Of a stretch of DNA of 64,000 bases, positions 44,851 through 62,166 are shown in pieces. The DNA is from Candidatus Beckwithbacteria bacterium (GTDB taxonomy: Bacteria; Patescibacteriota; Microgenomatia; UBA1400; CG1-02-47-37): NCBI GenBank assembly GCA_026397255.1, contig JAPLVF010000013.1, positions 251,532 through 315,531 of the forward strand. Direction: 5' to 3'. The position numbers and the translations under genes are program-made. The notes beneath the pieces were generated by a model, which searched no databases, was not told the origin of the DNA, and worked only from the letters and a program-made list of their open reading frames with translations. Position 1 is the stretch's first letter. Every line of letters begins with the position of its first letter.

Positions 44851-44936
44851 AAAAATCCTCCTTAAATCCGCCAGCTGGCGGATTATCACTCTATTATAAC
44901 AAGTGCTATTTTAAGGGCGTAAAGATTTCTTGTCAA
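44851..44936 (-). promoter_or_regulatory. groESL promoter region. It contains TTGACA (44936-44931), a 17-nt spacer and TAAAAT (44913-44908). A CIRCE-like inverted repeat ATAGCACTT-N9-GAGTGATAA lies at 44909-44883, and its spacer carries TTATAAT. The 20-nt palindrome AATCCGCCAGCTGGCGGATT at 44885-44866 sits in the 5' UTR.
   Basis: Reverse-complement of 44848-44950 reads ...TTGACAagaaatctttacgccctTAAAATagcacttgttataatagagtgataATCCGCCAGCTGGCGGATttAAGGAGGatttttATG. CIRCE consensus TTAGCACTC-N9-GAGTGCTAA is matched at 15 of 18 positions. Confidence 0.5.
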
Positions 44937-44951
44937 GGGCAGTTTCCAATA

Positions 44952-46196
44952 TTATTGAGATTTTATTATTTTGGTGGTGGAGATTTGGGGGTTGTGAGGC
45001 AGGACGATGACGACGCGGCCGCCGGAGCACTGCATAGTCCGGCGCTTGACGGCAAGGTTTGGAGTGCTACTAGAAACAGCCAAAATATCCGGCTTAATTT
45101 GATTAATTAAAGCGCTATGGTCTTCGTCAGAATCGAATTTTTCCGGAAGAGGAAAAACTTCATCGCTAAGCTTTAATTTTTGTAAATTTTTTATTCTTAC
45201 TTCTAATTTATTAATTGGCCGGCCGGGACCTTTAAGCTGGCGAACACGCTGGTCGGCTTCGACGCCAACTAATAAAATACCGCCTTGGTTTTTTGCGGCC
45301 AAAAGCAGTTTTTTATGCTCAATGTGTAAGATGTCGAAAACGCCGGTAACGAGAATTATTTTTGTAGCCTTATGATATTTTTTTAAAACAATCTCTCCGG
45401 TCGGCCGGGGATGAAAAAAAGCAAAGTGACGGCCGATTTTTTCGTGGGTAATTTTTCGCTTCATGTAAAAGTATTGAAATTTAAAAGCTAAAGATTCAAA
45501 AAAATCCATTAATAATCCAATAAGGTCCGACCTTTTTTCAGATTTGTCTTTTAAGGTCGGACCTTGAGGAAAGGAGGGGCCTTGGAAAAAGTTGGGTAAG
45601 TATTGTTTGTACCATGAGTTGGCTGTTAAAAAATTTTGATAGGCTTGGTCACGATTATACAGCGGTTTTAATTGGCAAAGCTCATGGGCGGTATATAGGT
45701 TTTGTTGGGCTAAGATTAAAGCGGATTCGTCCAAAAAAAGATTGAGACAAAAACGGTTGTTAATTTTGTGGCCGCGGCGAAGACGAAAAAATAATAAAGC
45801 AGTTAATAATAAACGAGCTAACCAAAGACGGTTTTTACTAGTAATAATTAATAAATCAATGTCGTCATTTTCAATGCTATTATTCATGCTTAAAGCGCCG
45901 GTAACACCAACTAATTTTATCCAGGGAATCAGGGAAAAAAGCCACTTAATTTGCTTAAGTTTCTGCCACTTTAATTGACTAAAGTGCCAACGTTTTTTTC
46001 TTAAACTCACCAGTTTTTGCCGACCGGGAAGATGAAAATAGGAAGAAGTTGTCCAATAAGGAGACACCTTCGCATTCGCAAAGGAGTCTCCTTTAATGGG
46101 GGAAAATTTAATGACTTCTTCTCTGGTTAAGGGATAGTCAAAAATATCGGCATAGGCAACGGGGGCTAAAATTCCCCGATTAGTTAGCCACGCCAT
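44952..46196 (-). CDS. Two-domain protein with an N-terminal nucleotidyltransferase-like region and a C-terminal cytidylyltransferase-like (RfaE-II/TagD-type HxGH-fold) domain. The start was moved to MAWLTN. It contains an in-frame palindromic element.
   Basis: C-terminal ILVTGVFDILHIEHKKLL...RPINKLEVR (nucleotidyl transfer motif). N-terminal DDIDLLIITSKNRLWLARLL. The element at 46058-46093 encodes KGDSFANAKVSPYW. Confidence 0.5.
   Translation of the reverse strand: MAWLTNRGILAPVAYADIFDYPLTREEVIKFSPIKGDSFANAKVSPYWTTSSYFHLPGRQKLVSLRKKRWHFSQLKWQKLKQIKWLFSLIPWIKLVGVTGALSMNNSIENDDIDLLIITSKNRLWLARLLLTALLFFRLRRGHKINNRFCLNLFLDESALILAQQNLYTAHELCQLKPLYNRDQAYQNFLTANSWYKQYLPNFFQGPSFPQGPTLKDKSEKRSDLIGLLMDFFESLAFKFQYFYMKRKITHEKIGRHFAFFHPRPTGEIVLKKYHKATKIILVTGVFDILHIEHKKLLLAAKNQGGILLVGVEADQRVRQLKGPGRPINKLEVRIKNLQKLKLSDEVFPLPEKFDSDEDHSALINQIKPDILAVSSSTPNLAVKRRTMQCSGGRVVIVLPHNPQISTTKIIKSQ
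46058..46093. repeat. Palindromic hairpin element family A, copy 2 (AAGGAGACACCTTCGCATTCGCAAAGGAGTCTCCTT), located inside the CDS 44952-46196.
   Basis: Read directly from the sequence. Identical to copy 3 including the 5' flank CCAAT. Translated in-frame as KGDSFANAKVSPYW. Confidence 0.85.
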
Positions 46197-47640
46197 ATTG
46201 CGACAACACCTGGGAAACTCCTTGAGATAAGTTTTTGGTAATATCGGTTTCGGACTGGTTTTTAAGATAACCATTAATGGCGTCTTCATAATATTTAATC
46301 AGTTTAGTGTCCAAACCGTTATCAGAAGTGTTAGCAGCCATCGGCCAAGATTGGGCGGTTAAGCCAGTAGCAACAATTGCCCCCAAATACGGGTCGGCTT
46401 GAAGCTGGCTGGCCATGTCCTGACGAGGATAGGGTTCACCGAAAAGCCTAGATTGAGAAGCAGAGTTATAGAGTTTAATTAATGCCTCACGGGAGCTTAA
46501 ATATTTAACAAAATCCCAGGCGGCAGCCTGATTAGCGGATTTTTTGGAAACTCCTTCAAGCCAATAGGTGGCCCAATTAACATTAGTGCCGGGCAGTTGA
46601 GGAACAGGATAAAGTTTAAAATTTAATTTGGGATTGGTCTGTTTAATTTCCAGGGCGCGCCAGGACGGGGCAATTATCATGGCCACCTTACCCGTAGCAA
46701 AAGCCAGGGTAGAGTTGGGCAAGGCGTCACTCCAAGAACGATCCTGGGTGACAAAAAGGGTATAAAATTTTAAGGCAGAGGTGACGGCTTCTGTATCGGC
46801 CTTACCGGGATTGCCGCCGTTTTGCAAAATCATCAGGCCTAAAATATCGGAAAAATTATCCACGTTGCTGGCAGCGCCTAAGGCGACGCCGGCCCGGGTG
46901 GGAATCCCCCGGGCATCTCTAGTGGTTAAATTAAAAGCGGTTTGGCGCAAGTTATCCCAGGTGGCCGGCACCTTTAAAGAGGAATCCTGACTAAAAATAT
47001 CTTCATTAACATATAAGGCCAAAGCATCAAACATTAAAGGGACGCCGTAGTAATGTCCGTTAAAGAAAACGTCTTTTTTAACCACCGGGTAAAAAGTCGT
47101 GTCAAATTCATTAGGAGAATAAATGGTGTCCGGGATCGGGGACAAGTCAGTTTTAAACATCGGCAGCCAAGTATTGTGCCAGCGGAAAATATCCGGGCCG
47201 CCGCCTTTAGCCAGGCTGGACTGCAACCGTTCGCGGTAGTCCTGAGACGATTGAAGCAGGTACTGAATGGTGACGTTGGGGTGAGTGGATTGATAGTCGC
47301 TGATAATGGAGGCCATTAAATTTTCCGGCTCCCAGAGACCCCAATATTGCAAGGTAATTGTCTCCGGAACTTTGGGTTTTTGAAATTTTGGCAAAATCAC
47401 CTTGGTGACTAAAAGAAAGAGTAAAAATAAGAGGGCAGCACCGATTAATAACGGGAAAATGTGCTTGAAAAACGGCTCGGAAACCTGATTAGGGGCGGCC
47501 GGCTCGCCTGGTGGCGGGGTGGACGGCACTCCTTCGCCAGAGGTTTCGACGGGCAAGGCCGGGGCGGTTAACGAACCTCCTTCGCCAGGAGCTTCGGCGG
47601 TTGAGATCGGAAAGGGTGGTTCAACAACGTCGCTAGACAT
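46180..47640 (-). CDS. Family-1 extracellular solute-binding protein (sugar ABC-type SBP), membrane-anchored with a Pro-rich N-terminal tail. No permease or ATPase genes are adjacent.
   Basis: TLQYWGLWEPENLMASIISDYQSTHPNVTIQY... is the SBP_bac_1 pattern. The N-terminal 60 aa are Pro/Glu/Gly-rich and followed by a TM. Confidence 0.7.
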   Translation of the reverse strand: MSSDVVEPPFPISTAEAPGEGGSLTAPALPVETSGEGVPSTPPPGEPAAPNQVSEPFFKHIFPLLIGAALLFLLFLLVTKVILPKFQKPKVPETITLQYWGLWEPENLMASIISDYQSTHPNVTIQYLLQSSQDYRERLQSSLAKGGGPDIFRWHNTWLPMFKTDLSPIPDTIYSPNEFDTTFYPVVKKDVFFNGHYYGVPLMFDALALYVNEDIFSQDSSLKVPATWDNLRQTAFNLTTRDARGIPTRAGVALGAASNVDNFSDILGLMILQNGGNPGKADTEAVTSALKFYTLFVTQDRSWSDALPNSTLAFATGKVAMIIAPSWRALEIKQTNPKLNFKLYPVPQLPGTNVNWATYWLEGVSKKSANQAAAWDFVKYLSSREALIKLYNSASQSRLFGEPYPRQDMASQLQADPYLGAIVATGLTAQSWPMAANTSDNGLDTKLIKYYEDAINGYLKNQSETDITKNLSQGVSQVLSQYGVAN

Positions 47641-47667
47641 TATGTTATCATCTTAACAAGAGCGATT

Positions 47668-49374
47668 ATGAGAAGCAAATTAGTTTATGTCTGGGCGGGA
47701 ATATTAATTGGTTTAAGCGGCATTATTTCTTTATATCATTTGGCTTACCTGAATAAAATTTACCCTTACGTCTCAGTCGGCTTAGTAAATATTTCTAACT
47801 TAACTTTGGACCAGGCAGAAAAAAGACTGGCCAGTTTTTCCCCTTCAAAAATACCCGTGATTAAGTTAACTTTTGGCAACCAGGAATGGCCGATAAATTT
47901 GGCGGAGACGCAAATTAAATATGATCCAAAGGCCACAGCAGAAGAAGCGTTTTTAAGAGGTAGGGGTCAAGGAATTGTTAAAGATTCGACAGTAAAATGG
48001 CAACAGTGGTTTAAGCCGAAAAACTTAACCATGAATTATTCAGTTGACGAACAAAAGTTACAAGAATTAATCGACGTGGTCACCCAAGCCGTGGAAGAAA
48101 AACCAATAATGCCGGCATTAACCTTAAACAACGATGGAAAAATTAGTTTAGTCCCGGGCAAGAATGGCCGCTTGGTGGAAAAAGATATTTTGGAACAAAC
48201 AATTTTAAATCAAATCGGGCGGTTAAATTTTAATAACGTGGCCATCCCGATCAAGTTAATTACAATCGATGTTTCCGGAGAAGAATTAAGCCAAGCGCAA
48301 ATAAAAGCAGAGGCAATAAAAGATAAAACCTTAACCTTAAAATATGCCGACTTTTCCAGAGAGATCAAGGGACAAGAGCTAATTAATTTAATCAGCTGGC
48401 ATAACGACTGGGATGAAGAAAAAATAACAGAGATAATTAATAGTTTGGGGCAGGATATAAACCGTGAGGCACAAAACGCGATGTTTCAGTTTGCCAACAA
48501 CCGGGTGACAGAGTTTAAGCCAGCGCTACCCGGACTGAAAGTTAACGAAGCAGAAACACGGAAACGAATTATTGATAGTTTAAACACTTGGCAGCCGGTA
48601 GAGGTGGCGGTCGAGACAGAGGAGCCGAAAATCAAAACAGAACAAGCTAATGACCTGGGGATTAAAGAATTAATCGGCAAGGGTGAATCGTATTTTTATC
48701 ATTCGATTCCCGGCCGCATCCACAATATCGCTTTGACCGCTGCCAAATTAAACGGGGTTTTAGTCGCGCCGGGAGAAACTTTTTCTTTTAACCAAACCGT
48801 GGGTGATATTTCCGCGGCGACCGGTTACGAAGCGGCTTACATTATTAAAGAAGGCCGGACAGTGCTGGGCGATGGCGGCGGAGTTTGTCAGGACTCAACT
48901 ACCCTCTTCAGGGCGGTTTTGAATGCTGGACTGGAGATTGTCGAGCGCCGGGCCCATGCTTACCGGGTTGGTTATTATGAAAATAACTCCGCTCCGGGAT
49001 TTGACGCCACTGTTTTCGCTCCATCGCCGGACTTTAAATTTACCAATGATACCGGGGCGTATGTTTTAATTCAAACCACGACGGATACGGAGAAACTGTA
49101 TTTAAAAATGGAACTGTACGGCACCAATGACGGCCGGACAGTCACCATCAGCAACATCAGATTGTGGGACCAAACGCCGCCGCCGCAACCGCTTTATCAA
49201 GATGACCCGACGTTACCGGCCGGGCAAGTAAAACAAGTGGACTTTGCCGCCTGGGGAGCGAAAGCGGCGTTTGACTGGAAAGTGGCAAGAAATGGCGAAA
49301 CCTTGCGCCAAAAAACTTTTTATTCTGTTTACCAACCCTGGCAGGCAGTGTATTTAAGAGGGACAAAAATTTAA
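47668..49374 (+). CDS. VanW-family protein (putative peptidoglycan-associated), membrane-anchored.
   Basis: C-terminal YHSIPGRIHNIALTAAKLNGVLVAPGETFSFNQTVGDIS...GGGVCQDSTTLFRAVLNAGLEIVERRAHAYRVGYY is the VanW domain. Confidence 0.7.
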   Translation: MRSKLVYVWAGILIGLSGIISLYHLAYLNKIYPYVSVGLVNISNLTLDQAEKRLASFSPSKIPVIKLTFGNQEWPINLAETQIKYDPKATAEEAFLRGRGQGIVKDSTVKWQQWFKPKNLTMNYSVDEQKLQELIDVVTQAVEEKPIMPALTLNNDGKISLVPGKNGRLVEKDILEQTILNQIGRLNFNNVAIPIKLITIDVSGEELSQAQIKAEAIKDKTLTLKYADFSREIKGQELINLISWHNDWDEEKITEIINSLGQDINREAQNAMFQFANNRVTEFKPALPGLKVNEAETRKRIIDSLNTWQPVEVAVETEEPKIKTEQANDLGIKELIGKGESYFYHSIPGRIHNIALTAAKLNGVLVAPGETFSFNQTVGDISAATGYEAAYIIKEGRTVLGDGGGVCQDSTTLFRAVLNAGLEIVERRAHAYRVGYYENNSAPGFDATVFAPSPDFKFTNDTGAYVLIQTTTDTEKLYLKMELYGTNDGRTVTISNIRLWDQTPPPQPLYQDDPTLPAGQVKQVDFAAWGAKAAFDWKVARNGETLRQKTFYSVYQPWQAVYLRGTKI

Positions 49375-50360
49375 ATTAGCTTTTGCTGTTCTAGACTGGC
49401 CGGTGGGTTTTTGCCAAAATGGGAATAGGCTTTGGGGGTGGCAAAACGGCCGCGGGGGGAACGCTTTAAAAATCCAATCTGCATTAAATAGGGCTCTATT
49501 ACCTCTTCGATGGTTTCTTTATCTTCACTAATAATCGCGGCTAAAGTTTCCAGGCCAACCGGACCGCCTTGATATTTATCAATTAAAGCCCTTAAAAGCC
49601 GACGGTCGTTGGCATCCAAGCCCATTTCATCAACTTCCAAAAGCGCCAAAGATTCATCTAAAACCGCTTTGGTAATCCCCGATTCGCCTTGAATTTGGGC
49701 GAGGTCACGACAACGCTTTAAAAGTTTTAAAGCAATCCGAGGGGTACCTCTGGCCCGGCGGGCTAAACTCTCGGCTGCGGCCGAATCGAGATTAATTTTG
49801 AGTTTGTGACTGGCGTTTTTAAGCACCTGCATTAAGTCTTCGGGCTCATAAAAAGTTAAGCGGTGAACAATACCAAAGCGGTCACGCAAGGGAGCGGCAA
49901 TTAAACCGATCCGGGTGGTGGCGCCGATAAGGGTAAACTTGGGTAAATCCAGTTTTAAAGTTCGGGCGGACGGACCCTGGCCGACGATAATATCCAAGTG
50001 ATAATCCTCCATCGCCGGATAAAGCGTTTCTTCAACGATTTTGGGTAAACGATGGACTTCGTCAATAAAGAAAATGTCACCTTGGTTTAAGTTGGTTAAA
50101 ATTGAGGCCAAGTCCCCGGCCCGCTCCAAAGCCGGCCCGGAAGAAGCACGAATATTAACATTTAATTCTTTAGCAATTAAGTGAGCCAGGGAGGTTTTGC
50201 CCAAACCGGGCGGGCCGTAAAGCAAGATATGCTCAACCGGCTCTTTTCTTTTTTTGGCGGCAGATAAAGCCACCCGTAAAGCTTTTTTAATTTTCCCCTG
50301 GCCAACAAAAGTATCCCAGGAGTCGACCCGGAGATTGGGAAATAAATCTTGTTTATCCAT
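49371..50360 (-). CDS. ruvB: Holliday junction branch-migration ATPase RuvB.
   Basis: LLYGPPGLGKTSLA, DEVHRL, and the C-terminal winged-helix region. Confidence 0.95.
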   Translation of the reverse strand: MDKQDLFPNLRVDSWDTFVGQGKIKKALRVALSAAKKRKEPVEHILLYGPPGLGKTSLAHLIAKELNVNIRASSGPALERAGDLASILTNLNQGDIFFIDEVHRLPKIVEETLYPAMEDYHLDIIVGQGPSARTLKLDLPKFTLIGATTRIGLIAAPLRDRFGIVHRLTFYEPEDLMQVLKNASHKLKINLDSAAAESLARRARGTPRIALKLLKRCRDLAQIQGESGITKAVLDESLALLEVDEMGLDANDRRLLRALIDKYQGGPVGLETLAAIISEDKETIEEVIEPYLMQIGFLKRSPRGRFATPKAYSHFGKNPPASLEQQKLI

Positions 50361-50362
50361 AA

Positions 50363-50938
50363 TTATTTTTTGCCTAATAATTTAATGGCTTGAGAAATCT
50401 TCGCCTCTAAGGTGGGTTGGTCGCTAACCTGATTCAAGGCTTCGCGGGCTTCTTGCCGGGAAAAGCCCAGGCTGGTTAAAGCATTAACCACGTCTTTAGT
50501 GACGCTGGTATCGCTGGTTAAGTCCAGCTCTTTTAAGCTACCGAGCTTGGATTTTAATTCAATAATAATTTTTTGGCTATTTTTGCGGCCCAGGCGAGGC
50601 ACAGTGGTAAAAAAATCAACGTCGGCCTGATTAACCGCCTGAGTAATGGCGTTGACACCTTTGTCCATAATATGAATGCCAGTTTTGGGGCCGACACCGG
50701 AAACAGAAATAATTAATTTAAATAATTGAAGTTCGTCTTTGGTGGCAAAACCATAAAGATCCAGAGCATCATCACGAACATGGGTGTAGATAAATAAAGT
50801 GCGGGGTTCGGAGTACGGAGCGCGGAGTGATTCAAGAAGTTTTTGAATGACAAAAACTTTATAACCAACACCGTTAACGTCAAGAATAATCGATTCGCTG
50901 TCTAAAATTTCCGCTTTGCCGGTAAGTTTGGCGATCAT
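50363..50938 (-). CDS. ruvA: Holliday junction DNA helicase subunit RuvA.
   Basis: MIAKLTGKAEI...GVGYKVF... with an HhH region (SGVGPKTG). Confidence 0.9.
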   Translation of the reverse strand: MIAKLTGKAEILDSESIILDVNGVGYKVFVIQKLLESLRAPYSEPRTLFIYTHVRDDALDLYGFATKDELQLFKLIISVSGVGPKTGIHIMDKGVNAITQAVNQADVDFFTTVPRLGRKNSQKIIIELKSKLGSLKELDLTSDTSVTKDVVNALTSLGFSRQEAREALNQVSDQPTLEAKISQAIKLLGKK

Positions 50939-50942
50939 TAAC

Positions 50943-51431
50943 TTATTTTATCTTATTTCCCAACTTATTACTAAAGGCGTGGGTGAGAGCAATCGCCAGA
51001 GCATCGGCGACGTCATCGGGTTGAGGAATAGTATTTAATTTTAAAATTGATTTAACCATTTGCTGGACCTGAGTTTTTTCGGCGCGGCCATAACCGGTGA
51101 CAGCCATTTTTACCTGCAGAGGAGTGTAAGAAAAGATTGGCATATTAAGCTTTTCTGCCGCAAGCAAGATAACCCCCCTAGCCTGCGCTACCTTAATGAC
51201 CGTAGTTTGATTTTTAAAGAAAAACAGGCTTTCGACGGCCACGGCAGCGGGTTTAATTTTACTTAGTATTTTGGTAAAGCCGGCAAATAATTTTAAGAGC
51301 CGTTGAGATTCGGACAATTTAAGGCTGGTTTCCAAACAGCCGTAATCGCCTACCTGACAGTCGTTGTTTTTTTCGGACACGACTCCCCAACCGATTCTGG
51401 CTGTACCGGGATCAACACCTAAAATAAGCAT
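50943..51431 (-). CDS. ruvC: Holliday junction resolvase RuvC.
   Basis: MLILGVDPGTARIGWGVV... The catalytic Asp/Glu pattern is present. Confidence 0.9.
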   Translation of the reverse strand: MLILGVDPGTARIGWGVVSEKNNDCQVGDYGCLETSLKLSESQRLLKLFAGFTKILSKIKPAAVAVESLFFFKNQTTVIKVAQARGVILLAAEKLNMPIFSYTPLQVKMAVTGYGRAEKTQVQQMVKSILKLNTIPQPDDVADALAIALTHAFSNKLGNKIK

Positions 51432-51460
51432 AAGATAATTATAATGGTAAAATAGAATTT

Positions 51461-53548
51461 ATGGATAAACAGTATCAGCCGAAAGAGTTTGAGGCAAAAA
51501 TTTACCAGATGTGGGAAAAGTCAGGCGCGTTTAAACCGACAGCGAAGGGTAAGCCGTACACGATTATTATGCCACCGCCGAATGCGAATGATCCGTTACA
51601 CGTAGGCCACGCAATGTTCGTGACAATTGAAGATATTTTTATCCGTTATCATCGGATGTTGGGTGAAGCAACTTTGTGGCTGCCGGGAACCGATCATGCC
51701 GGAATTGAAACTCAATATGTGTTTGAAAAGAAACTGAAAAAAGAAGGCAAAAGCCGCTTTGATTTTGACCGGGAAACTTTATACCAAATGATTTGGGATT
51801 ACGTGCAGAAAAATAAAACTACAGCAATTGATCAAATGAAAAAATTGGGGGCAAGCGCTGATTGGACCAAGCTAAAATTTACTTTAGATAAAGATATTGT
51901 CGATCAGGCATTGGACGCATTTATTAAATTATATAAAGACGGGTTGGTTTACAGAGGCTTGAGGCTCGTTAATTATTGTACCGGATGCGGAACAGGTTTT
52001 TCTAATTTAGAAATAAATCACATCGAGAGAACTGAACCACTTTATTACTTAAAATACGGCCCATTTACTTTGGCAACAACCAGACCGGAAACTAAATTTG
52101 GGGATACGGCGGTAGCAGTTAACCCAAAAGACAAGCGTTATCAAAAATGGATTGGTAAACAAATTGAGGTCGAGGGACTAGCGGGAAAATTTAAATTAAA
52201 AGTAATTAGTGATAATTATGTCGACATGAAGTTTGGCACAGGAGTAGTAAAAATTACGCCAGCCCATGATTTTAATGATTATGAGGTGTGGCAAAGACAT
52301 AAAAACGAAATTCCTCAACCAAAACAAGTAATCGACTTTAATGGCAAGCTAAATGCTTTAGCCGGCAAGTATCAAGGGATGAAAATTAATGAGGTTAGAA
52401 AAGTGATTGTTGAAGATCTAAAACAAAAAGGATTGATGGTAAAAATTGATGAAAATTATCAGCATGCTCTGGCTGTGTGTTACCGCTGCGGCCGAACAAT
52501 TGAACCATTGCCCATGGCCCAGTTTTTCATTAAAGTTAAGCCTTTAACCAAAAAAGTCTTGGCTTCCTTGAATAAGGGTGAGGTAAAAATTTATGGATCA
52601 GGCAGGGAAAAAATTCTTCGTCACTGGTTGGCTATTTTAGACGACTGGAATATCTCCCGACAAATTGTTTGGGGTATTACTATTCCAGTTTGGTACTGTA
52701 ATAAAAAGACTAATGATCCGGGTCAGTGTTTTGTGGTTAGTCAAACAAGGCCAAAAAAGTGTCCCAAGTGTGGGGCGACTGAATTCGAAGCGGAAACTGA
52801 CACTTTTGACACCTGGTTTTCCTCTTCTCAATGGCCCTTCCTTACACTTAGGGCAAGTCCTGACAAGAATGATTTTGAACGTTTCTATCCAACCAGCTTA
52901 ATGGAGACAGGTTATGATATTTTGCCGATTTGGGTAATGCGAATGTTAATGATGGGTTTGCATTTAACCGAAAAAGTGCCATTTAAACAAGTTTATTTAC
53001 ATGGCTTGGTAAGAGATGAAAAAGGACAAAAGATGAGTAAAAGTAAAGGGAATGCGATGAATCCGCTGGATGTGGTAGAAAAATACGGAGCCGATGCCTT
53101 AAGAATGGCTTTAGTGATGAGCACGACAGCCGGACAAGATAGCACCGTAGGTGAAGGAAAAATCCGGGGAATGCGAAATTTAACAAATAAGATCTGGAAT
53201 GCAACAAGATATGTGCTTAATATGCCTGAGCAAAAAGGACAATCGAAATACGAAAAAGAATTGAAAGAAAATTTAAAAATAAATATTAAAACTGTTACTG
53301 GTAGATTAAACAAGTTAAAACCTGGACAGGCCGCAGAGTGGATTTATGATTGGTTTTGGCATACTTATTGCGACCGTTATATTGAGTTGGCAAAAAAAGG
53401 GCTAATCGGGAAAAAATTAATGATTGAGGTTCTGCAAACAAATTTAAAACTCCTCCACCCGTTTGTGCCGTTTGTGACCGAAGCGGTTTGGCAACAATTG
53501 CCGGGAAATAAAGAAAAGTTGTTAATAAATTCAAGATGGCCAAAATAA
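51461..53548 (+). CDS. valS: Valyl-tRNA synthetase, short form (695 aa) lacking the C-terminal coiled-coil.
   Basis: PPPNANDPLHVGHA (HIGH), GTDHAGIETQ, editing-domain motif GTGVVKITPAHDFNDY, KMSKSKGN. Confidence 0.9.
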   Translation: MDKQYQPKEFEAKIYQMWEKSGAFKPTAKGKPYTIIMPPPNANDPLHVGHAMFVTIEDIFIRYHRMLGEATLWLPGTDHAGIETQYVFEKKLKKEGKSRFDFDRETLYQMIWDYVQKNKTTAIDQMKKLGASADWTKLKFTLDKDIVDQALDAFIKLYKDGLVYRGLRLVNYCTGCGTGFSNLEINHIERTEPLYYLKYGPFTLATTRPETKFGDTAVAVNPKDKRYQKWIGKQIEVEGLAGKFKLKVISDNYVDMKFGTGVVKITPAHDFNDYEVWQRHKNEIPQPKQVIDFNGKLNALAGKYQGMKINEVRKVIVEDLKQKGLMVKIDENYQHALAVCYRCGRTIEPLPMAQFFIKVKPLTKKVLASLNKGEVKIYGSGREKILRHWLAILDDWNISRQIVWGITIPVWYCNKKTNDPGQCFVVSQTRPKKCPKCGATEFEAETDTFDTWFSSSQWPFLTLRASPDKNDFERFYPTSLMETGYDILPIWVMRMLMMGLHLTEKVPFKQVYLHGLVRDEKGQKMSKSKGNAMNPLDVVEKYGADALRMALVMSTTAGQDSTVGEGKIRGMRNLTNKIWNATRYVLNMPEQKGQSKYEKELKENLKINIKTVTGRLNKLKPGQAAEWIYDWFWHTYCDRYIELAKKGLIGKKLMIEVLQTNLKLLHPFVPFVTEAVWQQLPGNKEKLLINSRWPK

Positions 53549-53556
53549 ATTCCAAT

Positions 53557-53600
53557 AAGGAGACACCTTCGCATTCGCAAAGGAGTCTCCTTTTAAAATA
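53557..53600 (+). terminator. Intrinsic terminator of valS, formed by copy 3 of the palindromic element (AAGGAGAC-A-CCTT...AAGG-A-GTCTCCTT) followed by TTTTAAAATATTT.
   Basis: The hairpin lies 9 nt after the valS stop and is followed by a T-run. Confidence 0.6.
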
Positions 53601-53642
53601 TTTAATAACTCTAGGCAAAAGTGTTTACCGGCCGGTAAAACC

Positions 53643-53662
53643 GATCCGCCAGCTGGCGGATC
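53643..53662. repeat. Perfect 20-nt palindrome GATCCGCCAGCTGGCGGATC, family B copy 2.
   Basis: Read directly from the sequence. Related copies at 44866-44885 (AATCCGCCAGCTGGCGGATT) and 59969-59984 (TCCGCCAGCTGGCGGA). Confidence 0.85.
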
Positions 53663-53668
53663 CCCTGT

Positions 53669-53988
53669 TGAAAAAAATAAAAATTGTTTATTTGTTGGTG
53701 GTTTTGTTAATTGTCGGAATGATCGGCAACTATCAATATTGGCAGGAGAAAAGAGCGTTCCAGGCCAGCCAAAAACAAAAAACTGTAATTCAGCAGGAAA
53801 TTGTTTCATTGGAAAAAGAGCTAGAAAAAAAACCGGAATACCGGGATGTTTTATTAAAATTAGCGCTATTAAATTACCAGATTTTGGAGACGGAAAAAGC
53901 AAAAGAGTACTGGAATCGGGCAAATTATCTAGATCCAAATAATTTAGAAGTGCAAAAAATCGGAGAGGTTATTTCTTCTCAGCTTTAG
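53669..53988 (+). CDS. Small membrane-anchored TPR-like protein, with a tentative TTG start. The track ORF from 53536 reads through the valS terminator and is probably 5'-overextended.
   Basis: TM IVYLLVVLLIVGMIG followed by helical repeats (...EYWNRANYLDPNNLEVQKIG). Confidence 0.3.
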
Positions 53989-54712
53989 GCTCGGACTTAG
54001 TTTCAGGCTTGGCAGCTTCTTTTTTAGGCTCAGGTTTGACACCAGGCTTAGGCTCCTTCGCCAAGGCTTCGGCGCCCGAAGCGGGTTTGGCTTCACCTTC
54101 AGCCGGAACAGCGGCTTCGACAACTGGCGCGGCAACGACTTCTTCTTTGGTCGGCTCTTCAATCTTAACTACCAACTCATCTAAGTTCTCGGACATTATT
54201 TTAACTTTGGCGGTATCGACCTTAATATCTTTCAAACTAATCCCCTGGCCGATTTCTGCCAATTTAGAAACGTCAATCATGAATTTTTCCGGTAAGTCCC
54301 GGGGTAGGGCTTCAACTTCTGTCTCATGAATTAGCTGAATGAGAACGCCGCCCTTGGTGGTGGCCGGGGCAATGCCGCTAACCTCAACCGGAATGGCGAC
54401 AACAACTTTCTTGGTCAGGTCAACCTGGTGAAAGTCCGCGTGTAAAATTTCGTCAGTAACCGGATGTTGTTGAACTGAATGAATTAAGACCGGGCGTGGC
54501 TTTGCTTCTTTGATTATTTCCAGGTCTAAAATGGCGGTTTCTCCGGCTTTGGCGAAAACCGCCTTAAATTCTTTGGCAGGAATTTGAATGGATAAAGATT
54601 TAACATCTTTACCATAAATATTGGCGGGAATAATCCCCTGGCGGCGGAGTTGTTTAACCTTACGGCCGGAAATTTTTCTTGGTTCAGCTTTTAATTTCAG
54701 ATTGTTTGGCAT
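53969..54712 (-). CDS. rplY: 50S ribosomal protein L25 / general stress protein Ctc, with a Lys/Glu/Pro/Ala-rich C-terminal extension.
   Basis: MPNNLKLKAEPRKISGRKVKQLRRQGIIPANIYGK... is the bL25 N-domain. The C-terminal 60 aa are low-complexity (EAKPASGAEALAKEPKPGVKPEPKKEAAKPE). Confidence 0.85.
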   Translation of the reverse strand: MPNNLKLKAEPRKISGRKVKQLRRQGIIPANIYGKDVKSLSIQIPAKEFKAVFAKAGETAILDLEIIKEAKPRPVLIHSVQQHPVTDEILHADFHQVDLTKKVVVAIPVEVSGIAPATTKGGVLIQLIHETEVEALPRDLPEKFMIDVSKLAEIGQGISLKDIKVDTAKVKIMSENLDELVVKIEEPTKEEVVAAPVVEAAVPAEGEAKPASGAEALAKEPKPGVKPEPKKEAAKPETKSEPKAEKK

Positions 54713-54748
54713 AACGAGGATAATAACATAATAAATACAAAAATTCCA

Positions 54749-54784
54749 TTAAGGTGACGCCTTCACATTCGTAAAGGAGTCACC
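54749..54784. repeat. Palindromic hairpin element family A, copy 4 (AAGGTGACGCCTTCACATTCGTAAAGGAGTCACCTT), intergenic. It is a likely terminator of the 1039-aa gene and lies upstream of rplY.
   Basis: Read directly from the sequence. Carries compensatory stem changes (GGTGAC/GTCACC versus GGAGAC/GTCTCC in copies 1-3). Confidence 0.8.
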
Positions 54785-54795
54785 TTTCCCATTTT

Positions 54796-57700
54796 TTACC
54801 TCTCGGTAAAGTCGACGGTAAAAATGCGGTCCAGGCTCATGTCGGATTTAAAAGTAACCACCTGGGGAGAAATTTGCCCGACCGGATTAATGCTCGTAAC
54901 TGACAAAAAGCTGGGGTAGTTAATGATGGCTTCCAGCTGATCATCAATAATCCCCGGCTGTTTCGGGATAACGAGAGCGAGCCGGCCCTGACGATTAGTT
55001 AAATTAAGCGGTTGGGTTAAACGATAAGTTATTTCCACTTTTAAAGAGTTTTTAACCGGCACGGTAACCGGAAAGCCAATAACAAATTTATCATTAATTG
55101 TTTCCTGGTCAACGTCTTTCAGATTTAATTTATTATCGCCCATTTTAACGGAGATGAGGACTGTCCCCTGAGGCAAGTATTCCCGCAAGTAGCTGCGGTA
55201 AATTCCACCAGGCCAAGCATCGGCCGGACTTTGATTTTGATAATCAATACTGGTGACGGCTAATATTTCTTTGGTTTTTAAAATAGTTAATTCCTGCCGG
55301 ATTAACCGTTTAAGAAAATAATTGGCCTTATTAATGCCTAAGTTTGCCTCGACTAAGTAGGAGTAGTCGCTGGTCACCGGCAATTTTGTGGCTAAATTTA
55401 GCTGAGGAGAATAAAGCGCGCCGGACCAATTTTCTTGCAGCAACAGCTTTTGGCTATCAGCATCGTGAAGATAAATTAATAATTGCTTTTGGGCCAAAGA
55501 GTTTTCAAATGCCTGGCTAAATTTAAGCAAATCTTGGGGAGAAGAATTTTTCATGCGAGTAAAAATTTCCCGGGCCAGGGCGCCTAAAAAGTCTTTTTTC
55601 TGAGTCGAGCCGGGGAAAAAATCAATTTCCGAGTGATATTCGGCCCGCTCAAAAAGATTGTCAGCAGTCACCTCTTCGTTGTAGTCAGGGAGGGTAATCG
55701 GACCAGTGGCCCGAAGCATTTCTTTGACTGCCGGAAGATTGACGGCAATAACGCCGTCAACGTTACGATTAGTGGTTTTACCTAAAAACCATTCGGCTCT
55801 TTGGGCAGAAATCGGAAAATCCGGATCCCAGTTAGAATCACGGAAATACCAGGTGTTTTGGCCTAAAAATTTAGCAATCGGCTGGGGCGGTTGAACATAC
55901 CCCTTTAACTGGCCATCGGCACTGTAAATATCTTCAACCACAAAGTCCAAAAGTTTGCCTTTTTCAAAAGTTAATAACCCGTAAGAGCCAATAAAGCCGC
56001 CGGTGGGCCGCAATTCGCTGGAGTTTTGAAAAAGCAAAAGATAAACTTTTTTAGAATCCTGGGCAATAAAACCCGGAATTAAAGGTAAAAGTGTCCGTCC
56101 CTGATTAATTTGATCGCGAATAGATGGCAGGCTGGTAGTTAAGGTTTGAAGTTTAAGCGTCAGCGGGGTTAATAAGGCTGAGGCTGATTCTCTGCCTGAC
56201 TGTAGCTCTGATTCAACAAAGGAAAATTCCGTATATGCCTGATCAAGATTGAGCTGAATGTCTTTAAGGGCTTGGCTGATGTTGCCATCCTGATGTTGAA
56301 AAATGATTTGCGCTAAAATCGTCCCGGCTTCGCCGGTTTTGGCTAAATGAACGGCCCCCTGACTAAGTTTGCTGCCGATAAACAATAGGCCGTCAAGGTT
56401 GGAGATTAATTTTGGGCCGCCAATAATTGAAGCCAGCAACCGGGAATGGCTTAGATAACTGCGGCTGGCGTCAAAGTTTTTTTGGGCCCGGAGACTTAAT
56501 TTAGTCATTTGGTTTACCTGACTGAAGTCTGGCAGGGCGGCAATTTGTTTCAAGCTGGAGGCGGCCCTCGTTCCGGAAATAAGCAAAAGAGTTGGCGGGG
56601 CAAAAAAATACAACACAAGGAGAACAATAAATAATAATAAATATTTATGGCGGCGAGAAAGATGAATCGGATGAGGCCGTAAAGACAATTTGATGGCTTT
56701 CTTAGGACGAAAAAAATTAAAGTTAATTTTGGGGAAAGTAATTTTAGGAAATTTAAAAGGCGGTTTGACAGGCTTAGTTTTAGTGGGGGGCGGAGCGGGC
56801 TTAATCCCCAACTCTTCGGGAGTATAAAGCGGCTCAGGGGAAATTGTTTCTTCGGAGGATTTTTGTTTTTCCGCCTGAAAGGCTTGACCGCCTTCCAACC
56901 ATTTAATGGTAGCTAAAATGCCTTGGTCAAAACTGACTTTAGGCGTCCAACCAAGTTCTTCCTGAGACTCCAAAATTTCCGGCGATAAATTGACGTCAGT
57001 TTCCTCTTGGTGGGCCGGAACAAATTCAATCGACAGGTTTTTATCGGGCAAGACTTGTTTTAATTTGTAAGTTAAATTTAAAACGGTGGTTTTTTGGGGA
57101 TTAATTAAAGTAAAAATTCTAGCCTGAGAGCTTTGAGAAAACATGGCCTTGGTCAGGCCGTAAACAATATCAGTGATGTAGGTCGGGTAAAGCGATTGAA
57201 GGCCCTGGCCAAAAATTTTTAATGGGCCGGCTTGCTTAACGGCCAAAAGCAGGCGGTTAATTTCACCGTCAGCAGTTAAGTTCATCCCCGGTCCGTAAGC
57301 AAAGCCCAGACGGACAATCCGAGCATCAAGCTGGTAACGATTAAGATATTCAAAAACAAGGGCCTCGGAAAACCGTTTGGCTTCGTGATGAGAATAAATT
57401 TCTTCATTGGTTTGGTTAGATCCAAAATAATGAGCTAAGTCGGTTGAAGAAAGAAAGCCGGAAAAAAGATCGGCATTAGAAACAAGTAAAAATTTACTGG
57501 ATTGTTTTTTAGCAATTTCCAGCAGCTCCCGCGTACCAAGCGAGTTAACTAAAAGAGTTTCCAGACTGAGGTCACGACCGGAGACATAGGCTTCAAACCC
57601 TGCCAAATGAAAAATATAATCCACTTTGGGAATGGTGGCAGAAAACGGTTTGTCTAAATCTTGTTCTAAAAAAATAAAGTTGGGTTGATGAAAAAGATTT

Positions 57701-57888
57701 TTAAGATTGGCCTTTTTACCACTAATCCAGTTATCAACAGCATAGACCCGACAGTTTTGGGCTAATAAAGTTTCGCAAAGTTGGGAACCGATAAAACCAG
57801 CGGCACCGGCAACTAAGGCCGAGGGAAGATGAGGAACTGACTGAAGTTTTTGTTTAGGCATAGGCAGGATAAAACTTCTTTCTTTCAT
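54796..57888 (-). CDS. Fusion protein. An N-terminal NAD-dependent sugar epimerase/dehydratase (extended SDR, about 330 aa) is joined through a Pro/Lys-rich linker and a single TM to a large (about 600 aa) extracytoplasmic domain of unknown function.
   Basis: LVAGAAGFIGSQLCETLL (Rossmann GxxGxxG). Linker PAPPPTKTKPVKPPFKFPKITFPKINF. TM YLLLFIVLLVLYFFAPPTLLLI. The start is set at ATG 57888; the track uses TTG at 57915. Confidence 0.65.
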   Translation of the reverse strand: MKERSFILPMPKQKLQSVPHLPSALVAGAAGFIGSQLCETLLAQNCRVYAVDNWISGKKANLKNLFHQPNFIFLEQDLDKPFSATIPKVDYIFHLAGFEAYVSGRDLSLETLLVNSLGTRELLEIAKKQSSKFLLVSNADLFSGFLSSTDLAHYFGSNQTNEEIYSHHEAKRFSEALVFEYLNRYQLDARIVRLGFAYGPGMNLTADGEINRLLLAVKQAGPLKIFGQGLQSLYPTYITDIVYGLTKAMFSQSSQARIFTLINPQKTTVLNLTYKLKQVLPDKNLSIEFVPAHQEETDVNLSPEILESQEELGWTPKVSFDQGILATIKWLEGGQAFQAEKQKSSEETISPEPLYTPEELGIKPAPPPTKTKPVKPPFKFPKITFPKINFNFFRPKKAIKLSLRPHPIHLSRRHKYLLLFIVLLVLYFFAPPTLLLISGTRAASSLKQIAALPDFSQVNQMTKLSLRAQKNFDASRSYLSHSRLLASIIGGPKLISNLDGLLFIGSKLSQGAVHLAKTGEAGTILAQIIFQHQDGNISQALKDIQLNLDQAYTEFSFVESELQSGRESASALLTPLTLKLQTLTTSLPSIRDQINQGRTLLPLIPGFIAQDSKKVYLLLFQNSSELRPTGGFIGSYGLLTFEKGKLLDFVVEDIYSADGQLKGYVQPPQPIAKFLGQNTWYFRDSNWDPDFPISAQRAEWFLGKTTNRNVDGVIAVNLPAVKEMLRATGPITLPDYNEEVTADNLFERAEYHSEIDFFPGSTQKKDFLGALAREIFTRMKNSSPQDLLKFSQAFENSLAQKQLLIYLHDADSQKLLLQENWSGALYSPQLNLATKLPVTSDYSYLVEANLGINKANYFLKRLIRQELTILKTKEILAVTSIDYQNQSPADAWPGGIYRSYLREYLPQGTVLISVKMGDNKLNLKDVDQETINDKFVIGFPVTVPVKNSLKVEITYRLTQPLNLTNRQGRLALVIPKQPGIIDDQLEAIINYPSFLSVTSINPVGQISPQVVTFKSDMSLDRIFTVDFTER

Positions 57889-58103
57889 GTTAGCGGATAA
57901 TTGCCCCAAGAACAAGGTGCTATTTGCGGAGAATCGTTTTAACCTATTCGGTTAGTACTTTTTTCTAGGACTGCTTTACAGGCTAAATTTGTTTTTAGTG
58001 ATTAGTCTGTTAACTAAATATTTTTTCGTTAGCACTCTTTTACATGAAATCTTCTTGAGTCAAAAAAGTTAGTTTTAAAAAACTAAACAAGGAGAAAAAG
58101 GGT

Positions 58104-58523
58104 CTAGATTAGGTGGTCGAGGGCAAGGTTGACTAGGCGGTCGGCGGCGGTGTTTTTTTCGCGGGGAATGTGGGCGTATTTAATTGAACCGCCAACTTTA
58201 GCTTCCAGCTCGCGGAGAAAAATAATTTTTTGACGCAACTGGGTGTCTTTAATTTTCCATAAACCGTTCAGTTGGTTAACCACAAGTTGCGAGTCGAGGT
58301 GAAAAACGATTTCTGATTGATGATTAACGAATTCTGATTTTTCAGAAAGCCACTCCAGGGCGACAATAACGGCTTGGTATTCAGCCAAATTGTTGGTGGC
58401 AATTCCGATAGTTTTACCAAAAGAGTGAATAATTGTTCCAGAAGCGTTTTTAATGACAAAGCCTACGGCTGCCGGGCCAGGATTGCCCCGACTGCCCCCG
58501 TCGGTATAAATATTGAGAGTCAT
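58104..58523 (-). CDS. rnhA: Ribonuclease HI.
   Basis: MTLNIYTDGGSRGNPGPAAVGFVI...HIPREKNTAADRLVN carries the RNase H DEDD residues. Confidence 0.85.
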   Translation of the reverse strand: MTLNIYTDGGSRGNPGPAAVGFVIKNASGTIIHSFGKTIGIATNNLAEYQAVIVALEWLSEKSEFVNHQSEIVFHLDSQLVVNQLNGLWKIKDTQLRQKIIFLRELEAKVGGSIKYAHIPREKNTAADRLVNLALDHLI

Positions 58524-59044
58524 TCTTGTTTGGGCCCCACTTCGCTAGAAGGGGCCTCCTTCGCTGAAGCTACGGCGGCCGAAGCAGGTTTAACAATTAA
58601 GTGGCGATTGCGGCCTTCGCCTTCGGATTCAGTGGCCACCTTAGGATCGGTGCTTAAAAAGGCGTGAATCGTGTGCCGCTCAAAAGGATTTAAATTAAAT
58701 AAAGCCATGGGCTGACCGGAAAACTTAACCCGTTGGGCAGTGTCTTGGGCCAGCTTAATCAAGGTTTCTTCGCGTTTTTGGCGATAGTCCCCGATGTTCA
58801 CCACCAACTTGCACCACTCGCCTTTTTGCCGATACAACAACAGATTTAACATTAGCTGTAGAGCGCTGATGGTGTCGCCGTGATAGCCAATCAGCATACC
58901 CATTTCCTGATCAGCCAACTCTAAGTCTAGTAAGTAGCTGTCCGGCTCAGGAGAAGAAATGGTAATTTTGGTTGGTTCAACCCCCAACTGACTTAAAAGT
59001 TGTTTGGTTAGTTTGGCAATATTTTTTTCAGTGCTTTTTTCCAT
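58520..59044 (-). CDS. khpB: KhpB/Jag (KH plus R3H RNA-binding protein).
   Basis: KH region GMLIGYHGDTISALQ and R3H region NLNPFERHTIHAFL. Conserved position after yidC. Confidence 0.8.
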   Translation of the reverse strand: MEKSTEKNIAKLTKQLLSQLGVEPTKITISSPEPDSYLLDLELADQEMGMLIGYHGDTISALQLMLNLLLYRQKGEWCKLVVNIGDYRQKREETLIKLAQDTAQRVKFSGQPMALFNLNPFERHTIHAFLSTDPKVATESEGEGRNRHLIVKPASAAVASAKEAPSSEVGPKQE

Positions 59045-59816
59045 AATTTAAGGTTAGTTGCTGAACCAGCATAATAAGAGAGAAAACCAACCAATAAAGC
59101 ACCAACCCTGAAGGAAATTTAAAACCAATAAAAATTGTCATTAACGGAAACAAATAAAGCATTTGCGTCTGCATGGCAGTGGCCATGTCGTCGGCTTGTC
59201 CGGGGGTTTTTTGAGCAACAACGGCATTTTTTTTGGCAGCCGGCATCATTAATTTGGAAGAAAGAAACTGGACAACGGCGGCGGCAATTAAGAAAATGCC
59301 GGGAAATTTGTCAATGGTCAGGCCAAGGATTTTAATGGCGGGAATAGAAAATAAGTCCGGCTGGGTGAGGTTAAGATATAAAAACCGGGAATTTAAAGAA
59401 AAATCCAGGGGAAGTTTTAAGACAGGATAAAGAATATTATTAAGATTAGTAACGAGGTCTCCCCGACTTTGCAAAACCTGATTAAAGGCCTGATAAAGAG
59501 CAATTAAAACGACAATCTGAATAATTTGGGGCAGGCAGCCGGCGGCTGGGTTAAGACCGTGGCTTTGAAAAAGCTCTAGTTGTTTTTTAGCAAACACTTG
59601 TTTGTCTTTGCCATATTTTTCTTTAAGTTTCGCCAGCTCGGGTTGAAGTTCTTTCATTTTTTGGCCGGTTTTCAAAGAAGGAAGAGTGAGGGGGGTTAAG
59701 ACCAGCCGGATTAAAACAGTCAAACCAATAATGGCCAAGCCAAGATTGTGGCCCAGTAATTCGTATAAAAAAATCAAGGCGTTAACTAAAGGATGATAAA
59801 AAAAGGTGTTCCACAT
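59028..59816 (-). CDS. yidC: Membrane protein insertase YidC, short form.
   Basis: 262 aa with 5 TM helices, LTLPSLKTGQKMKELQPEL..., in conserved synteny. Confidence 0.85.
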   Translation of the reverse strand: MWNTFFYHPLVNALIFLYELLGHNLGLAIIGLTVLIRLVLTPLTLPSLKTGQKMKELQPELAKLKEKYGKDKQVFAKKQLELFQSHGLNPAAGCLPQIIQIVVLIALYQAFNQVLQSRGDLVTNLNNILYPVLKLPLDFSLNSRFLYLNLTQPDLFSIPAIKILGLTIDKFPGIFLIAAAVVQFLSSKLMMPAAKKNAVVAQKTPGQADDMATAMQTQMLYLFPLMTIFIGFKFPSGLVLYWLVFSLIMLVQQLTLNYGKKH

Positions 59817-59819
59817 AGT

Positions 59820-60017
59820 TTAATTCAAGGGGTCGTAACCACCCTTTGACCAGGGGTGACACTTAATAATTCTTTTAAGGCTCAAAAAGCCACCTTTTAA
59901 TATACCATATTTGGCAATAGCCTCGTAGGAATATTGAGAACAGGTAGGAATAAAACGGCAGGAGCGGGTCCGCCAGCTGGCGGATTGGTAAAAACGGATT
60001 AATTTAAGAGCGAGCAT
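59820..60017 (-). CDS. yidD: Membrane protein insertion efficiency factor YidD.
   Basis: LIRFYQ...[19 protein letters not shown]... The conserved RFISPLLGPR-like segment is replaced by SASWRTRS, which is encoded by the CCGCCAGCTGGCGG palindrome. Confidence 0.8.
59969..59984. repeat. Palindrome family B copy 3 (TCCGCCAGCTGGCGGA), located inside the yidD CDS.
   Basis: Read directly from the sequence. Confidence 0.85.
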
Positions 60018-62002: not shown

Positions 62003-62166
62003 GTTTATCCACAGTTTATCAACAAAAAAATCCACCGAAAAAGACGGGGTTGTCAACCGGTATTTTTAGCAGTGAAATAAGGGGAAAAATCGATTATAAT
62101 ACACTTATCAACAAAGACTATTAATATTACTACTATTTTTAATTCTAATTAGTAATAAGGAGAGAT
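62003..62166. other. Candidate oriC. DnaA boxes TTATCCACA (62005-13), TTATCAACA (62016-24 and 62105-13) and TTGTCAACC (62050-58), plus an AT-rich unwinding element (62111-62160) immediately upstream of dnaN.
   Basis: Read directly from the sequence. The canonical dnaA-oriC-dnaN arrangement. Confidence 0.65.

Follow-up and report, generated by a model that had tools for sequence, protein, structure and literature searches.

Small dispersed repeats (SDR1-8) occur in Nostoc and other cyanobacteria; Elhai and colleagues are said to have described them in 2008, and they reportedly measure 21-27 nt. Rickettsia palindromic elements (RPEs) are longer (~100-150 bp), are restricted to Rickettsia and lie in frame in protein-coding genes, and the GC clusters of yeast mitochondria are organellar selfish palindromes. 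CIRCE, recognized by HrcA, and parS, recognized by ParB, are protein-binding palindromes whose positions are conserved and whose origin or persistence reflects selection for binding. A passage in one paper mentions an insertion of SDR5 into HIP1 (PMC4390886), and organellar palindromes include the repetitive hairpin-forming elements of sponges (PMC2800124) and the palindromic repeats of Volvox (PMC2670323). Repetitive extragenic palindromic (REP) sequences and REPINs are short, GC-rich extragenic palindromes mobilised by RAYT (TnpA_REP) HUH nucleases; REPs are imperfect palindromes of 20-40 nt that bear a conserved tag (GTAG or CGTC), exceed 100 copies per genome and have a linked or resident RAYT (PMC3116915, PMC2817692, PMC3733652). 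Here we analyse a 64-kb stretch of a Candidatus Beckwithbacteria genome (the window; 42% GC) in which a perfect palindrome of 16-20 nt occurs four times around the invariant 16-mer TCCGCCAGCTGGCGGA. We conclude that these copies probably form a family of a very small, non-autonomous, GC-rich palindromic mobile module that was recently written into this genome.

A scan of the window located the exact 18-mer ATCCGCCAGCTGGCGGAT at 44866-44883 and 53644-53661, as well as two one-mismatch versions that differ from it in one outer base only (copies 1 and 4 in Table 1). The usual form of the module is an 18-mer, ATCC...GGAT, built around the 16-nt core. The core was observed four times versus a mean of 0.01 in 100 dinucleotide-preserving shuffles, none of which reached four, and because it is 75% GC in a window of 42% GC, an origin by chance is especially unlikely. 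The recurrence of a 16-20-nt perfect palindrome, as put forward in the original prediction, is therefore real and non-random, although the number of places is four and not three, the copy at 21373 in the FemAB-family open reading frame (ORF) having been overlooked. As the 8-nt half-site on its own has only two solitary copies in the 64 kb, the full dyad is the unit. The 16-mer contains a stop codon in none of the six reading frames, which enables it to survive inside genes: three of the four copies lie in coding sequence and one in the 5' untranslated region (5'UTR) of groES, the remainder of the window being housekeeping genes. Two contigs from a separate assembly (L204 and L209, run SRR20698647) match both window ends and carry copies 1 (L204) and 3 (L209), and the presence of these copies in independently assembled contigs excludes an artefact of the assembler. 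Database entries labelled Candidatus Beckwithbacteria include sequences 100% identical to three proteins of the window (YidD, the FemAB protein and L25). When the window and 11 palindrome loci were scanned against Rfam, only tRNA, 5S and 23S genes were returned and no family at the palindromes, and a literature text search revealed no printed occurrence of CCGCCAGCTGGCGG, the 12-13-mer matches being unrelated eukaryotic or primer sequences.

Table 1. Copies of the palindrome and associated features in the window (positions count from the first nucleotide of the window).
Feature	Sequence	Coordinates	Perfect palindrome	Strand of gene	Context	Remarks
Copy 1	ATCCGCCAGCTGGCGGAC	21373..21390	16-nt core, 21374-21389	+	inside second FemAB-family gene, 21013-21825	read IRQLAD
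Copy 2	AATCCGCCAGCTGGCGGATT	44865..44884	20 nt		groES 5'UTR, spacer between CIRCE-like repeat and Shine-Dalgarno sequence	
Copy 3	GATCCGCCAGCTGGCGGATC	53643..53662	20 nt	+	inside small conserved gene, 53536-53988	read IRQLAD
Copy 4	GTCCGCCAGCTGGCGGAT	59968..59985	16-nt core, 59969-59984	-	inside yidD, 59820-60017	read SASWR
groES promoter and CIRCE-like inverted repeat	TAGCACTTG-N-AGAGTGATA (repeat)	44886..44936		-		both kept in relatives, palindrome not
Sister palindrome	CCTGCCTGCGCAGGCAGG	20155..20172	18 nt	+	inside first FemAB gene, 19979-21016	six in-frame residues within PLPAQAGLP

The orthologous DNA of relatives came from a metagenome scan with GroES and from protein searches whose matches were traced to their contigs (a direct BLASTN comparison of the four sites with the loci fetched gave no match, and orthologues were recovered via the protein searches). 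In the groES 5'UTR, nine loci (L122-L127, L129, L142 and similar) whose GroES is 85-92% identical read gagtgataa-TTATTATT(TA)-tttaaggagg where the window reads gagtgataa-TCCGCCAGCTGGCGGA-tttaaggagg, i.e. 9-10 nt have given way to 16 nt (net +6-7 nt), and these loci still keep the promoter, the CIRCE repeat and the Shine-Dalgarno sequence. The yidD site of L202 and L203, bounded by flanks that are ~85% identical, has 13 nt (CGCTTGCCCCACA or TTTTTACCCCGCT) instead of the 16-mer (net +3 nt in the window). In the small gene, L207 and L208 carry GTTAATAA or AGTAATTA, encoding KP-(L/V)IN-PLL (net +9 nt in the window), and in the second FemAB gene L205 and L206 (proteins 71% and 67% identical) carry tandem heptamers, AAATCCT or GAAATTC x3, where the window palindrome sits between TTTTCA-type remnants (net +6 nt). 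The palindrome is consequently absent from all four orthologous sites in the closest relatives found. In the second FemAB gene it took the place of a heptamer-repeat tract, and at the three other sites that of 8-13 nt of unrelated sequence; no target-site duplication was seen at the four filled-versus-empty junctions, and the length change in all three genic copies is a multiple of three. Judged from these alignments, every window copy is a recent, lineage-specific gain of the replacement type. In relatives of the window organism, loci totalling ~680 kb contained two copies, compared to four in the 64 kb of the window, which argues for a lineage-specific expansion in the window lineage. The original prediction correctly placed one copy inside yidD, but the segment it was held to replace is not strictly conserved, and the closest relatives read RLPHSRS, FLPRSRS and others.

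A sister palindrome of different sequence behaves alike. CCTGCCTGCGCAGGCAGG in the first FemAB gene is a perfect 18-nt palindrome and, compared with L205 and L206, a clean insertion of 18 nt, and identical or near-identical palindromes (CCTGCCTGCCGGCAGGCAGG and variants) are found in at least 10 other loci (L008, L014, L046, L062, L089, L090, L095, L118, L188 and L197) of Patescibacteria, Bacteroidales and others. It lies 4 nt from the 18-mer with the TCCGCC core in L089 and about 40 nt from it in L090. The shared behaviour indicates that such insertion characterizes GC-rich perfect palindromes as a class and not one sequence.

We then determined the distribution of the 18-mer in a scan of one genome per GTDB species (596 Gb), in which all counts are lower bounds. 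We counted the exact 18-mer in at least 120 loci among the species representatives, predominantly those of low-GC Patescibacteria and Bacteroidota, versus roughly 9 expected by chance (our own arithmetic for an 18-mer palindrome of uniform composition in 596 Gb; fewer in low-GC genomes). Among the matches listed, 46 are from Bacteroidota, 38 from Patescibacteria, 9 from low-GC metagenome-assembled genomes (MAGs) labelled 'Gammaproteobacteria' and 7 from low-GC members of other FCB-group phyla, while GC-rich genomes account for only about 13-14 of the 120 loci listed, roughly as chance would give. Cultured isolates from different projects are among the carriers (Niastella, Pedobacter psychrophilus, Olivibacter domesticus, Sphingobacterium nematocida and Aquiflexum). 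Several genomes have at least two copies, and a 598-kb Patescibacteria contig (JBMNNJ010000001.1) has eight copies in the 24 kb sampled, its copies being spread across at least 240 kb. In IMG/VR the 18-mer was found once and the 16-mer in 55 stretches, most of which are GC-rich and compatible with an origin by chance. The core is present in 16 low-GC viral contigs and in several of these lies at a hairpin tip. These contigs are suggestive of phages as vectors, without clear enrichment. The host breadth thus spans Patescibacteria, Bacteroidota, other FCB-group phyla and some low-GC phage contigs.

The copies outside the window share a recurrent anatomy. Their flanks vary from copy to copy, yet are often mutually complementary, such that the constant core forms the tip of a longer, variable hairpin: in 20 of 125 low-GC copies the flanks pair at 8 or more of 12 positions, versus 2.4 expected. 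In some genomes the core caps T-run-bearing, terminator-like stems (e.g. L012, L032, L092 and L096), in others it forms the tip of CGTC-tagged REP-like hairpins such as cgtcattgcgagg...cctcgcaatgac (L053, L028 and L033). Many copies lie within imperfect tandem heptamers (arrays of the AATTTCT, GAATTTT or CAAAACT type), and the identity of flanks is raised at lag 7 and not at other lags. Long open frames contain 40% of copies versus 82% of random positions (~60% versus 18% outside such frames), and intergenic copies between divergent genes are fewer than expected (7 observed versus about 15). Genic copies are read in all three frames (IRQLAD, SASWR and PPAGG), and single-base variants of the central AGCT (loop) occur among the copies elsewhere.

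In a Chitinophagales MAG (L056, JAXLUA010000003.1, 5260-5520) the true 5S rRNA gene has the hairpin GGTAAAACC, and in both of two tandem partial duplicates downstream, each comprising the 3' half of the 5S rRNA and the terminator, the 16-mer replaces the helix tip; as read from the sequence, the duplicates are a paralogous empty-site comparison. In the GroEL C-terminal tail, the 16-mer is present in L168 (7815-7830) and L172 (11917-11932), where it encodes PPAGG, and at the same position in the GroEL 3' ends of the L172 clade we observed one mismatch in L179 and changed loops in L174 and L165, i.e. a decay series. L147, a close relative of L168, has a non-palindromic sequence of equal length (AGTGCTCCGACAGGCGGAATG) at the GroEL position.

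On the basis of the excess over shuffles, the empty sites, the distribution across phyla, the hairpin-tip and heptamer positions, the decay series and the sister family, we favour a mobile module as the likely explanation. A very small mobile palindrome had been the fallback in the original prediction, and the empty sites at all four positions and the cross-genome distribution now bring it to the fore. We hypothesize that the module spreads as a hairpin-forming unit via a templated patch or a copy-choice event, for which single-stranded or hairpin DNA during replication or repair would be the likely setting; alternatively, an unlinked, trans-acting, structure-specific enzyme might act on hairpins. 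Classical cut-and-paste transposition is unlikely, since a tract of similar length is replaced, no target is duplicated and hairpin tips and repeat arrays are preferred. The stable hairpin in the groES 5'UTR and the extra residues in variable protein loops would then be by-products and not the purpose of these events.

Several points weigh against a mobile module. No candidate for a trans-acting enzyme emerged: all-against-all clustering of the ORFs around ~100 copies revealed no enriched protein family and no recurrent transposase, HUH nuclease or reverse transcriptase, and Pfam annotation of the 49 larger window ORFs gave neither these three kinds of enzyme nor ParB. Known transposons, moreover, do not insert by replacing a tract without target duplication. 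The relatives with empty sites are only 66-92% identical in protein, and each site could therefore reflect more than one event; in addition, the polarity (gain, not loss) was assigned by parsimony, with no explicit tree. For a 16-18-mer to be exactly identical in several phyla, either recent horizontal spread or strong selection on the sequence would be required, and the count of four copies covers 64 kb of the source genome. Both copies in relatives and one window copy lie in the groESL operon, a recurrence that could be a sign of function, although the loci of these relatives had been chosen through groES. Finally, the bias towards hairpin tips and intergenic DNA could in part be survivorship, reflecting places that tolerate an extra GC hairpin.

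The main rival is a selected hairpin function, which we judge unlikely. It posits an RNA or DNA hairpin cassette under selection, acting as an orientation-independent mRNA stabiliser, processing site or terminator cap, whose exact sequence is recognized by a conserved host factor and whose copies arise via gene conversion or convergence and not by self-propagation. In its favour, copy 2 as RNA is predicted to form a very stable hairpin (-12.2 kcal/mol, z = -4.2) that leaves the Shine-Dalgarno sequence unpaired, T-run stems are capped in other genomes, copies between divergent genes are depleted, the groESL operon is occupied three times in different lineages, and the GroEL clade keeps the stem while the loop and the encoded residues change. 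By contrast, none of the four window copies has a T-run or a terminator-like score (their tails read TTAAGGAGG, CCCTGTTG and similar), in agreement with the original prediction, three of the four lie within ORFs, and the groES 5'UTR does without the palindrome in nine related loci. Furthermore, an RNA hairpin needs neither a self-complementary AGCT loop nor a perfect DNA palindrome, and it is implausible that different phyla would converge on an identical 16-mer unless a factor can be named.

The groES copy also speaks to the proposal that the palindrome is the operator of a dimeric DNA-binding regulator co-regulating groES, yidD, the small gene and the FemAB gene, which we consider quite improbable. 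The predicted position of this copy in the 5'UTR between the CIRCE-like repeat and the ribosome-binding site held up: a sigma-70-type promoter (TTGACA-17-TAAAAT, 44936-44908, 11/12 match) is followed by the CIRCE-like repeat, the palindrome, the Shine-Dalgarno sequence AAGGAGG and the ATG at 44850. A perfect 16-20-bp dyad placed between promoter/CIRCE and Shine-Dalgarno sequence is what an operator might look like. However, the dimeric-regulator reading fails on the orthologous groES position, where nine loci that retain promoter, CIRCE and Shine-Dalgarno sequence lack the dyad, and on the coding location of three of the four copies, far from promoters; the palindrome is also found in 5S rRNA fragments, terminator tips and heptamer arrays of unrelated phyla. 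L131 and L132 have another GC-rich near-palindrome or hairpin (gcccgccgacggcgaggc) in the same CIRCE-to-Shine-Dalgarno spacer, ~40 nt before the groES start, and this different hairpin suggests that the spacer is a recurrent landing or tolerance site.

Slightly less credible still is a role in chromosome organisation close to the origin, with the palindrome serving as a non-canonical parS, as a site of the Noc type or as one at which SMC is loaded. A 16-bp perfect palindrome with several copies within 40 kb of dnaA (60590), in both coding and non-coding DNA as for parS, would fit, as would the absence of a canonical parS (TGTTTCACGTGAAACA, up to 3 mismatches) from the window's 60 kb beside dnaA/dnaN (60590-63297). 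On the other hand, the same 60 kb contains no ParB gene, the sites are not conserved in relatives and originated by insertion or replacement and not by point mutation, copies on the 598-kb Patescibacteria contig extend over at least 240 kb, and the association with hairpin tips and heptamer arrays is left unexplained. parS itself (consensus TGTTNCACGTGNAACA) was rejected, as its sequence differs, the sites are unconserved in relatives and the window encodes no ParB domain.

A comparably poor candidate is a recognition sequence for restriction-modification, methylation or DNA uptake that was enriched by biased repair or uptake. The central CAGCTG is a known type II recognition palindrome, and Patescibacteria have pilus and competence genes, PilN and PilO being encoded in the window. 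Yet CAGCTG is neither enriched nor avoided (16 observed versus 16.2 expected), contrary to the restriction-modification reading offered earlier, and the uptake reading offered with it founders on the unenriched half-site, on a density far below the norm of roughly 1 per kb for uptake sequences, and on the identical sequence in unrelated phyla; gains were also multi-base replacements and not point drift. Least probable of all is an assembly, adapter or chimera artefact, for although identical short palindromes in many unrelated assemblies are the expectation for a shared library artefact, the copies lie in frame within intact conserved genes with continuous flanks, are reproduced by two independently assembled contigs of the same run, occur in genomes of cultured isolates from different projects (Niastella, Pedobacter, Olivibacter and Sphingobacterium) and have decayed variants at orthologous positions.

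The start of the gene that harbours copy 3 bears on how this copy is read. The small, membrane-type conserved gene after valS has an ATG at 53536 that gives a 13-nt overlap with the valS stop, the same overlap is present in L207, and the N-terminus (SNKETPSHSQRS...) is conserved in L208. The gene thus most likely starts at this ATG and not at the TTG at 53668, which would put both copy 3 and the apparent valS 'terminator' within coding sequence. The distance of 95 nt from valS given in the original prediction is correct, whereas its placement just before the start of the small gene is not. At 53624-53639, 4 nt upstream of copy 3, lies a perfect 16-nt palindrome of another sequence (TTTACCGGCCGGTAAA), which is ordinary conserved coding sequence (VYRPVKP), the versions in relatives being near-palindromic with one to three differences. 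Similarly, CCTGCCCTGGGCAGG at 18471 in uvrD was considered as a further insertion and rejected, as alignment with L206 identified it as ordinary conserved coding sequence.

The window also contains a second repeat family of ~40 nt, a hairpin with the consensus (A)ATAAGGAGACRCCTTCRCATKCGYAAAGGAGTCTCCTTTAA, in four copies versus 0.09 expected (12594-12671, 46037-46114, 53536-53613 and 54730-54807, with cores at 12624, 46067, 53566 and 54760). The copy at 53566 lies in the N-terminal coding part of the small gene, is in tandem in L208 and absent from L207, and the independent Logan contig L209 ends inside it. In the Patescibacteria contig JBMNNJ010000001.1 (L048, L052 and L090), intergenic mosaics are built of several short hairpin modules (the TCCGCC core, CCTGCCTGCCGGCAGGCAGG, GTCATCCTGACGAAAGTCAGGAT, ATTCTGAATCAAGTTCAGAAT and GGGCGGACCCATGTGTCCGCCC) surrounded by AT-rich heptamer arrays, and L052 has a ~116-nt composite with a core at each end.

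A broader and distinctly more tentative proposition is that the palindrome represents a cross-phylum family of 16-20-nt perfect-palindrome micro-elements with at least two sequence families (the TCCGCCAGCTGGCGGA and the CCTGCCTGC(C)GCAGGCAGG type), which would replace hairpin tips or short patches outside known transposition pathways, write into UTRs, rRNA fragments, terminator tips and, in frame, into genes, and move among Patescibacteria, Bacteroidota, other FCB-group phyla and phages. If so, few of the known DNA elements that spread horizontally would be as small, and their existence would imply a structure-specific enzyme yet to be discovered or a writing process templated by replication. 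If the mobile-module reading holds, bacteria of very distant phyla have in common an 18-base 'word' that can be written to new sites in the genome, among them essential genes such as yidD, the groESL operon and those for peptidoglycan enzymes. For annotation, such palindromes would mimic operators and terminators, distort gene-start calls and break short-read assemblies, and for protein evolution they would provide six-residue in-frame insertions into variable loops. For mobile-DNA biology, they would bear on the mechanism of very small repeats, a question that dates from the description of the cyanobacterial SDRs, and the cultured carriers (Niastella, Pedobacter psychrophilus, Olivibacter domesticus and Sphingobacterium nematocida) make it experimentally testable.

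How does the module compare with known systems? With CIRCE and parS it shares a (near-)perfect dyad of similar length and one sequence in distant phyla, parS also occurring in coding DNA near oriC, but it is absent from orthologous sites of close relatives and appears as a multi-base replacement; the positional conservation of an operator is lacking in the nine related groES loci. Uptake sequences (DUS/USS) are asymmetric motifs that are specific to a genus or family and occur about once per kb, versus four copies of a palindrome in 64 kb and several phyla here. An intrinsic terminator is a GC-rich hairpin that precedes a T-run at the 3' end of a gene, and no window copy has such a T-run; the over- or under-representation of a short palindrome as in HIP1 is not seen for CAGCTG. 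Each of the four sites shows a gain, positions are not conserved, three copies lie in coding sequence, several phyla carry the palindrome, the CAGCTG count is neutral and the half-site is not enriched; these observations disfavour the operator, parS-like, uptake and restriction-modification readings, and the module looks like an undescribed element and not a regulatory site.

Among mobile sequences, miniature inverted-repeat transposable elements (MITEs) consist of terminal inverted repeats and 50-500 bp of internal sequence, whereas the whole unit here is a 16-18-nt palindrome without target-site duplication. Like REPs and REPINs, the palindrome is short, GC-rich, dispersed and non-autonomous and can form composite mosaics, and at some loci its core is found at CGTC-tagged hairpin tips (L053, L028 and L033). 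It differs from them in that the window copies are perfect over 16-20 nt, with variable flanks and no GTAG or CGTC beside the core, in that three of the four lie in ORFs (elsewhere ~60% are outside long ORFs), and in that no RAYT-like gene is nearby, either among the window ORFs or among the ORFs around copies elsewhere. With RPEs it has in common the in-frame palindromic insertion that adds tolerated peptide segments, but it measures 16-18 nt and occurs in several phyla, unlike the ~100-150-bp elements of Rickettsia. The organellar palindromes are likewise GC-rich hairpins in AT-rich genomes, located in intergenic, rRNA and sometimes coding DNA, with no encoded enzyme and a proposed gene-conversion-like spread; they are, however, usually longer and family-specific, while here free-living or episymbiotic bacteria share one exact sequence across phyla.

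By behaviour, the SDR-type very small repeats are the closest analogue that the module resembles. Both would be tens of bases long, hairpin-forming, dispersed, recently mobile and without an encoded protein, and both would often lie in tandem heptamer repeats or nested within other repeats. In line with this, the palindrome is a dispersed repeat of <30 nt with hairpin potential and no coding capacity, it is present or absent at orthologous sites (four of four window sites being empty in relatives, plus the 5S paralogues), and it is embedded or nested in heptamers, as reflected by the arrays at the FemAB site in relatives, the arrays elsewhere and the raised lag-7 identity. It departs from the SDRs in having a perfect palindrome of 16-18 nt as its core as opposed to 21-27 nt, in having its hosts among Patescibacteria, Bacteroidota and other FCB-group phyla instead of cyanobacteria, in being shared in identical form across phyla and in replacing sequence in frame inside protein-coding genes. 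Very small dispersed palindromic repeats are a known kind, of which the one described here is unusual in its host range, its cross-phylum identity and its insertion behaviour.

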